NCBI GenBank assembly: GCA_021513715.1
Contig: CP084167.1
Location: 3,136,001 to 3,200,000, forward strand
Reading direction: 5' to 3'
Source of the DNA: Candidatus Heimdallarchaeum endolithica
GTDB taxonomy: Archaea; Asgardarchaeota; Heimdallarchaeia; Heimdallarchaeales; Heimdallarchaeaceae
Length of the DNA stretch: 64,000 nucleotides
Shown here: in pieces, positions 23,962 to 24,170 of the stretch
How positions within the stretch are numbered: the first letter of the stretch is position 1
Layout: each line of letters opens with the position of its first letter
Made by a program: the position numbers and the translations under genes
The notes under the pieces: model-generated
Told to the model about the DNA's origin: nothing
The model's input: the letters and a program-made list of their open reading frames with translations, nothing else
Databases searched by the model: none

Positions 23962-24170
23962 GAAGATAGCGTAGGCTAATAATTTGGCTAAAAACAAGTC
24001 GAGAAATTTCTTATTCACCAGAAAGAATGGACGAAAAGCCAGAACAGAGTTAAGACCCTGGTGAAGAAGTAAACTTCTACTTTTAATATGGTGTGAGGAC
24101 GATAGCATACGCTACAAAAAACCAATTATCAAGCGTATGAGTTCGTCCATTCTTAAACATCTTAACTCTA
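23962..24170. ncRNA. Candidate structured RNA or leader element, possibly IS-derived
   Basis: Perfect 13-bp (24023-35/24142-54) and 10-bp (24046-55/24160-69) complements; 11/12-bp pairs 24010-21/24058-69 and 23967-78/24103-14; 8-bp pair 24106-13/24132-39. Confidence 0.4.

Follow-up and report, generated by a model that had tools for sequence, protein, structure and literature searches.

The window analysed here, a 64,000-nt stretch of contig CP084167.1 (positions 3,136,001–3,200,000), belongs to the closed 3.33 Mb genome of Candidatus Heimdallarchaeum endolithica (~30% G+C), and the element in question lies within a 386-nt spacer between a gene for a major facilitator superfamily (MFS) transporter on the minus strand and a divergent 60-codon open reading frame (ORF) on the plus strand. 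We regard this element, with moderate confidence, as a conserved cis-acting leader of a drug-efflux-type MFS mRNA that works as a ribosome-read switch in Heimdallarchaeia. On comparative sequence evidence it is a conformational switch, because one of its segments has two mutually exclusive pairings and each of these is separately conserved. A first-pass annotation of the window had proposed a switch built on crossed pairings upstream of the MFS gene, in the 5′ region of its minus-strand transcript, and had called for homologs and covariation as a check; the homologous leaders were found in distant relatives, their helices covary, and the mutually exclusive as well as the crossed pairings are conserved with compensatory changes.

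Architecture and conservation of the leader

All coordinates refer to the window, and the leader is described as minus-strand mRNA, which was taken as the RNA strand in view of promoter, upstream ORF (uORF) and gene context. The predicted promoter has a TATA-like box (24192–24199), an A/T octamer that stands 20–25 nt before strand b in every lineage inspected, and from this spacing we infer that transcription starts at or near b. Strand b (24160–24169), the predicted 5′-terminal 10 nt of the mRNA, is complementary to b′ (24046–24055; 10/10 bp), and its last base is the A of the AUG of uORF1 (24083–24160; 25 codons plus stop). Strand a (24142–24154) covers codons 3–7 of uORF1 and is complementary to a′ (24023–24035; 13/13 bp). 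The 3′ 7 nt of strand a are shared in the window with the 5′ arm of P2, a hairpin within uORF1 (24097–24148) that has 17-nt arms at 24132–24148 and 24097–24113; in other lineages of the family the stretch common to P2 and a:a′ comprises 2–5 nt. The P2 loop holds a run of six U, and its 3′ arm contains the start codon (24106–24108) of a second small frame, ORF2 (23914–24108; 64 codons, +1 frame relative to uORF1), which runs through P3, b′ and a′ and has its stop on the start of the MFS gene (ATGA). The P3 hairpin (24007–24072) has arms at 24058–24072 and 24007–24021 and a 36-nt loop in which a′ follows 3′ of b′, giving the crossed order, and the b:b′ and a:a′ helices both also cross P3. The predicted duplex energies in the window are −20.0 (P2), −18.1 (a:a′), −13.2 (P3) and −11.3 kcal/mol (b:b′); a fold with P3 forced, including its mismatch, gave an energy below the minimum free energy (MFE), an artefact that was left unused.

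Every pairing that had first been read from the letters of the window exists at the positions given. The hairpin 24010–24021/24058–24069 (11/12 bp) can be lengthened to 15 nt at 87%, both sets of perfect complements stand in crossed order as described (24023–24035/24142–24154, 13 bp; 24046–24055/24160–24169, 10 bp), and the 25-codon uORF (24160–24083) and the 64-codon ORF (24108–23914) with its ATGA overlap with the MFS gene proved to be conserved features. Segment 24103–24114 had been given two exclusive partners, and both pairings exist: the one with 24132–24139 (8/8) is part of the 17-nt-arm hairpin 24097–24113/24132–24148, and for the one with 23967–23978 (11/12) no conservation was seen in an inspection by eye only.

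Searches with blastn in 41 related genomes reached the congener only, the element being too diverged for this method, and homologous leaders were instead reached by anchoring on the neighbouring MFS protein. MFS orthologues occur at 48–51% identity in six other genomes of the window's family, and metagenome and genome contigs add orthologues at 98%, 59%, 50%, 42% and 31–32% identity. The same layout is found upstream of distant MFS orthologues (31–53% identity) in ~25 other Heimdallarchaeia genomes or metagenome contigs, always in the order TATA-like box, b, a uORF of 20–29 codons, P2 inside this uORF, and P3 with b′ and a′ crossed in its loop. Every family or contig orthologue found with upstream DNA has the box 20–25 nt before b, a uORF of 23–29 codons and the crossed complements. 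The helix sequences are wholly different between lineages, and the P3 stems share no sequence. A covariance model (R1) matched one copy per genome in 10 of the 83 genomes of the class, led also to a second family and had no matches in the other Asgard genomes sampled; its counts are lower bounds, as strict filters gave 1/22 in the second genus though leaders exist there. In this second family, represented by one genus, the MFS orthologue is near-universal (18/22 genomes), and a uORF of 20–23 codons is present in 16/16 loci with usable upstream DNA, while orthologue and leader are patchy in the window's family (7–8/30 genomes). The element occurs as a single copy per genome before the same transporter orthologue, with one orphan noted as an exception (see below).

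Each leader received an architecture score, which adds up the best b:b′, a:a′ and surrounding P3 that fixed rules on position allow, and this was compared with the scores after dinucleotide shuffling of the downstream part. In the window's family and the contigs, the score was above the shuffles in 10/10 leaders (z 1.5–6.6), with P ≤ 0.004 in four independent lineages, and in the second genus, where 10 of 16 leaders were scored, P was ≤ 0.045. The crossed order outscored the nested one in 10/10 leaders of the first set and in 10/10 of the second genus. Pairing was also assessed in a plain, unfitted MAFFT alignment of the family (A3), in which the window's helices were paired in 68% of cells, compared with 37–49% in slid controls (the same helices with their partner strands slid). 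For single helices the values were 81% (b:b′), 84% (a:a′) and 91% (base helix of P2), with compensatory changes; 20 pairs had changed on both sides, a number reached by 2 of 500 shuffles, and alignment A4 gave a similar result. P3 is only ~50% paired in the family alignments, where the stem shifts position, so it was scored per sequence: every lineage has a stem of 6–16 bp, differing in sequence, that brackets b′ and a′.

The unfitted alignment of the second genus (A5) was paired in 90.9% of cells versus 35–54% in slid controls. Here a:a′ was paired throughout (100%), with three covarying positions that run through G-C, G-U and A-U, P3 reached 88% with five pairs changed on both sides, and b:b′ reached 83%, the misses being a 1-nt register shift. 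The 5′ strand of a:a′ (the AUG and codons 2–3) consists in this genus of the same nucleotides as the 5′ arm of P2, which was itself paired in 95.8% of cells versus 20–44% in slid controls, and one column covaries with both its P2 partner and its a′ partner. RNAalifold predicts P2 and P3 without input of the proposed helices. Among three Heimdallarchaeum strains, 8/8 differences fall outside the helices.

The single sequence of the window is unusual and not decisive, that is, only suggestive. Of 2000 dinucleotide-shuffled copies of 23962–24184, 0.1% contained a perfect inverted repeat of ≥13 nt, as did 0.13% of 14,918 equally long windows taken from the genome; the summed repeat statistic of this interval was matched by 0.05% of the shuffled copies and by 0.34% of the genomic windows. 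When the extreme is picked, about one window of comparable repeat richness is expected per 64 kb. The z-scores of nested MFE folding, which is blind to the pseudoknot, were weak (−2.0 and −2.6). Taken together, the pairings are more than chance by the comparative evidence, because they are conserved with covariation in distant relatives.

The leader of the congener Ca. H. aukensis PM71 is 99.6% identical. This identity was initially considered as a sign of constraint and was dropped as uninformative because the whole block at 22.3–25.1 kb is 95–100% identical to Ca. H. aukensis, with an average of 90% over the surrounding 16 kb and 70–85% in the flanks; the pattern suggests recent recombination or gene flow between the two Heimdallarchaeum species over the MFS, leader and DHDPS-like genes. 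Elsewhere in the window, 59700–60940 gives dozens of staggered matches in the congener (68–74% identity) with an offset of ~66 nt, which indicates a long tandem-repeat gene. The divergent ORF on the plus strand (24304–24486), annotated as a hypothetical protein and conserved in Heimdallarchaeaceae, has a TATA-like box ~25 nt upstream of its ATG and is therefore probably leaderless.

Two further loci stand apart from the rest. In L042 (G012:C17), from one genome of the family, the leader is intact at ~1501–1663 of the oriented contig (149 bits, uORF1 intact), the MFS gene is gone and a convergent neighbour gene lies within ~120 nt of the leader, as if a recent deletion had orphaned it. A Guaymas contig of 3.1 kb that was filed as 'Thermoplasmata archaeon' (QMSR01000166.1; L024 = L037) carries a Heimdall-type leader and an MFS orthologue (42% identity), and was probably mis-binned or else reflects a transfer.

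Reading frames and the proposed mechanism

The predicted regulated gene (22691–23917, minus strand) encodes a 408-aa protein with a Pfam MFS_1 match (2.6e-16), and its best NCBIfam matches are to the drug-efflux families TetA(P), QacA/B and EmrD, all of them weak and far under the cut-offs. A Shine–Dalgarno (SD)-like sequence can be read at 23922–23929 (minus strand); a local hairpin at this motif is predicted in most lineages, in single-sequence folds only. The public protein collection contains neither of the window's two small frames.

The position and length of uORF1 are kept in all ~25 homologous leaders (20–29 codons). Among five close relatives, the differences per codon position (0.07/0.10/0.23) have a coding-like third-position excess, and in the window's family the peptide follows a loose pattern: its N-terminal half is polar, an aromatic/hydrophobic stretch is present and a proline stands close to the C-terminus. 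An ORF2-type open frame (65–71 codons) ends −4 to +10 nt from the MFS start in 6/7 lineages, and its stop lies at this distance in nine family leaders and in the contig with the 42% orthologue; such a frame is expected in 0.7–7% of shuffles per lineage (P 0.007–0.07) and was found in six lineages. Without exception it is read in +1 relative to uORF1; it opens immediately 3′ of a conserved TAG in P2, and its first start codon (ATG, TTG or GTG) is located 14–29 nt before the uORF1 stop, in or beside the 3′ arm of P2. Its substitutions have no codon-position bias and the peptide is barely alignable, which by the comparison of these sequences means that the frame is kept open and the product is not. 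Strict termination-reinitiation coupling has been shown experimentally for ATGA-type overlaps in Haloferax (PMC6728339), and the arrangement of ORF2 and the MFS gene fits such coupling as a candidate case.

Two features of a leader-peptide attenuator are present in the element, namely a short ORF conserved in position and exclusive helices with one strand in the leader ORF. In the mechanism that we propose, the transcript would start at b, ~9 nt before the AUG of uORF1, so that b would form the actual 5′ terminus and hardly any leader would precede uORF1. The segment with the AUG and first codons would either form P2 with a segment inside uORF1 or, together with b, pair with b′ and a′ of the P3 loop, and the pseudoknot so formed would hold the 5′ end of the mRNA. 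P2 would form once ~60 nt had been made and the partners of the pseudoknot would appear ~100 nt later, with b:b′ acting as a toehold from which a′ could displace the 3′ arm of P2. A ribosome on uORF1 would decide the fold, as it would block b and a, unwind P2 and free the P2 3′ arm, which in the window's family would expose the start of ORF2. Ribosomes on ORF2 would then open up P3 along with the pseudoknot, and after terminating at the ATGA of the MFS start they would reinitiate there; transporter synthesis would in this way depend on the initiation, movement or stalling of ribosomes on uORF1. Translation stress, a substrate acting on the nascent peptide and temperature are candidate signals, and the logic would match that of the leader-peptide switches by which bacteria control resistance and efflux genes.

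Runs of U are found on the minus strand at 24115–24120 and 23991–23995 in the window, and in many lineages, though not in all, stretches of 5–7 U lie within the P2 loop and within the P3 loop or directly 3′ of it. As archaeal transcription terminates at oligo-U, premature termination at these runs in the leader is possible.

Several points weigh against a ribosome-read switch. The start site, the translation of uORF1 and the regulation are all inferred from sequence, and a strand test based on wobble pairs gave a 5:5 split. Sequences of the same genus are related, and the shuffle statistics overstate their independence. No conserved terminator and no universally conserved SD-sequestering helix were demonstrated in the leaders compared. 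In the second genus, the differences per codon position of uORF1 (0.25/0.37/0.32) carry no coding signature, and much of the apparent peptide conservation could stem from constraints on the RNA; the leaders inspected have no run of one amino acid or of regulatory codons and no recognised arrest motif in uORF1. A long ORF2 is missing or short in the second family, where a subset has instead a frame of 25–28 codons that starts by an ATGA overlap on the uORF1 stop, and a relay to the MFS start is therefore not the universal output.

Alternative explanations

A constitutive structural leader that senses nothing is possible, albeit improbable in our assessment. The pseudoknot would in this case guard the 5′ end from decay or keep translation low, and uORF1 and ORF2 would be by-products or serve coupling only. 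Of the long-range contacts, the pairing of the predicted 5′ terminus is conserved best, the leader yielded no sensor element, and the nested MFE structure and the fold with b:b′ forced are nearly isoenergetic (−42.5 vs −42.2 kcal/mol, within 0.3), all of which would suit such a leader. A static fold, however, has no need for two exclusive helices that are both kept by covariation, nor does it account for a uORF kept in position and length in ~25 loci.

The conserved pseudoknot with an alternative pairing beside a transporter gene also brings to mind a metabolite or ion riboswitch, with the pseudoknot as an aptamer for the substrate of the transporter and P2 as the expression platform; many riboswitches control exporters. 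We consider this unlikely. The helix sequences drift, the unpaired linkers (b to a, b′ to a′) vary in sequence and length among lineages, and the invariant columns lie mostly in helices or codons, with no sign of a ligand pocket, while a start codon and an ORF would sit inside the supposed aptamer. Rfam 15 gave no hits for the window at the gathering threshold (best sub-threshold E 2.4–9.4) and none for six homologous loci, in line with the initial impression that no known family could be recognised, and a tRNA/tmRNA scan of the window found none. Of the readings offered in the first-pass annotation, a riboswitch, if of the metabolite kind, and a stand-alone non-coding RNA thus found no support, the latter in view of the location of the element before the same transporter orthologue with one copy per genome.

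The conservation of uORF1, together with its polar N-terminal half, aromatic/hydrophobic stretch and near-C-terminal proline in the window's family, could alternatively point to a functional micro-protein, for instance a partner of the transporter, whose synthesis the fold merely tunes. This is quite unlikely, given that the hydrophobic stretch of ~12–15 residues was judged too short for a membrane helix, that the second genus lacks the codon-position signature and that the conserved residues coincide with the helix strands. A programmed +1 frameshift or backward reinitiation from uORF1 into ORF2, stimulated by the downstream structure as in the antizyme and prfB sensors, would explain why ORF2 is always in the +1 frame, overlaps the end of uORF1 and has a start codon of unconserved type without SD, with structure following the uORF1 stop. 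The idea failed on the shift site, which is not conserved (a slippery CUU-U context occurs in 2/9 leaders and the last codons of uORF1 vary), and with a canonical start codon of ORF2 in every case we hold it to be very unlikely. Chance inverted repeats in an ordinary promoter spacer, for which the expected frequency of repeat-rich windows and the modest MFE z-scores could be cited, are hardly credible, since an architecture with compensatory changes in two families, next to a protein of 31–53% identity, excludes them.

Comparison with known leaders and switches

A bolder version of the ribosome-read switch, which we put forward tentatively and with limited confidence, is that the element may be an archaeal counterpart of the bacterial leader-peptide resistance switches, with a near-leaderless uORF, a 5′-end toehold pseudoknot and a peptide-free relay frame. 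What the near-leaderless uORF would sense is the pace of the ribosome or a small molecule that acts on the nascent chain; the toehold-like pseudoknot with the 5′ end would turn the reading of uORF1 into a change of fold, and the peptide-free relay frame would carry ribosomes to the start codon of the exporter. In the bacterial ermC, cat and cmlA leaders, a ribosome stalled on a short ORF remodels exclusive helices and so frees an initiation site further downstream, in a gene for resistance or stress. Similarly, the uORF of E. coli topAI senses ribosome-targeting antibiotics (PMC12121999). Compared with these four systems, the Heimdall leader is archaeal and its uORF near-leaderless, P2 occludes the start of the intermediate ORF and not the SD of the structural gene, and no stalling motif or inducer is known for it. 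The B. subtilis bmrB leader of bmrBCD (PMC4191407) is a translated small ORF with alternative stem-loops, and induction needs translation of the leader. Both leaders place a small ORF with alternative stem-loops directly upstream of a drug-type transporter; bmrB is bacterial, controls a multidrug transporter of the ABC type and has an intrinsic terminator inside the leader ORF, whereas the Heimdall leader has a crossed pseudoknot with the 5′ end of the mRNA and a second long frame that leads to the transporter start.

At its downstream end the leader resembles archaeal coupled gene pairs (Huber et al. 2019, PMC6728339; PMC10666635), as ORF2 and the MFS gene overlap by ATGA or TAATG or lie a few nt apart, and an SD-like motif precedes the downstream start. 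It differs from them in that its upstream partner is a frame with a freely drifting peptide and no protein gene, and the coupling itself is predicted. In hok/mok of plasmid R1, pairing between the 5′ end and a remote element downstream locks the mRNA, and an overlapping frame relays translation to the main gene. A hok-like fold-back had been suggested at the outset, and what stands of it is the pairing of the 5′ end with a distant element and the overlapping coupled frame; the leader is not of the hok family, its partner lies ~105 nt downstream and not at the 3′ end, the downstream gene encodes a 408-aa MFS protein and no toxin, and no antisense RNA is known for it. In the maturation-gene leader of phage MS2, long-range pairing hides the initiation region and translation occurs only on nascent or unfolded RNA, in a kinetic window. 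The sequestering of an initiation region by long-range pairing is common to both, but the MS2 leader is viral, without a uORF and without a pseudoknot with a hairpin loop.

To our knowledge, few cis-regulatory RNAs are known in archaea. Neither a leader-peptide switch from any archaeon nor a structured leader from Asgard archaea was described in the literature searched, and the work on Ca. H. endolithica by Wu et al. 2022 (PMC8813620) does not mention leaders, untranslated regions or riboswitches. The comparative support gathered here (~25 loci in two families, with a covarying pseudoknot and exclusive helices) is of the kind that normally defines an RNA family. If the proposal is true, a coupling of fold and ribosome on a uORF would operate in the closest prokaryotic relatives of eukaryotes, which themselves use uORFs widely, the 170 nt with two small frames and a single reporter would be a compact and testable model, and the exporter would be marked as inducible, with an inducer that could show against what these uncultured organisms protect themselves. 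What is known from bacteria is the combination of a leader ORF with competing helices; the host domain is new, as are the crossed pseudoknot, the involvement of the mRNA 5′ end in pairing and a relay frame without a conserved peptide.
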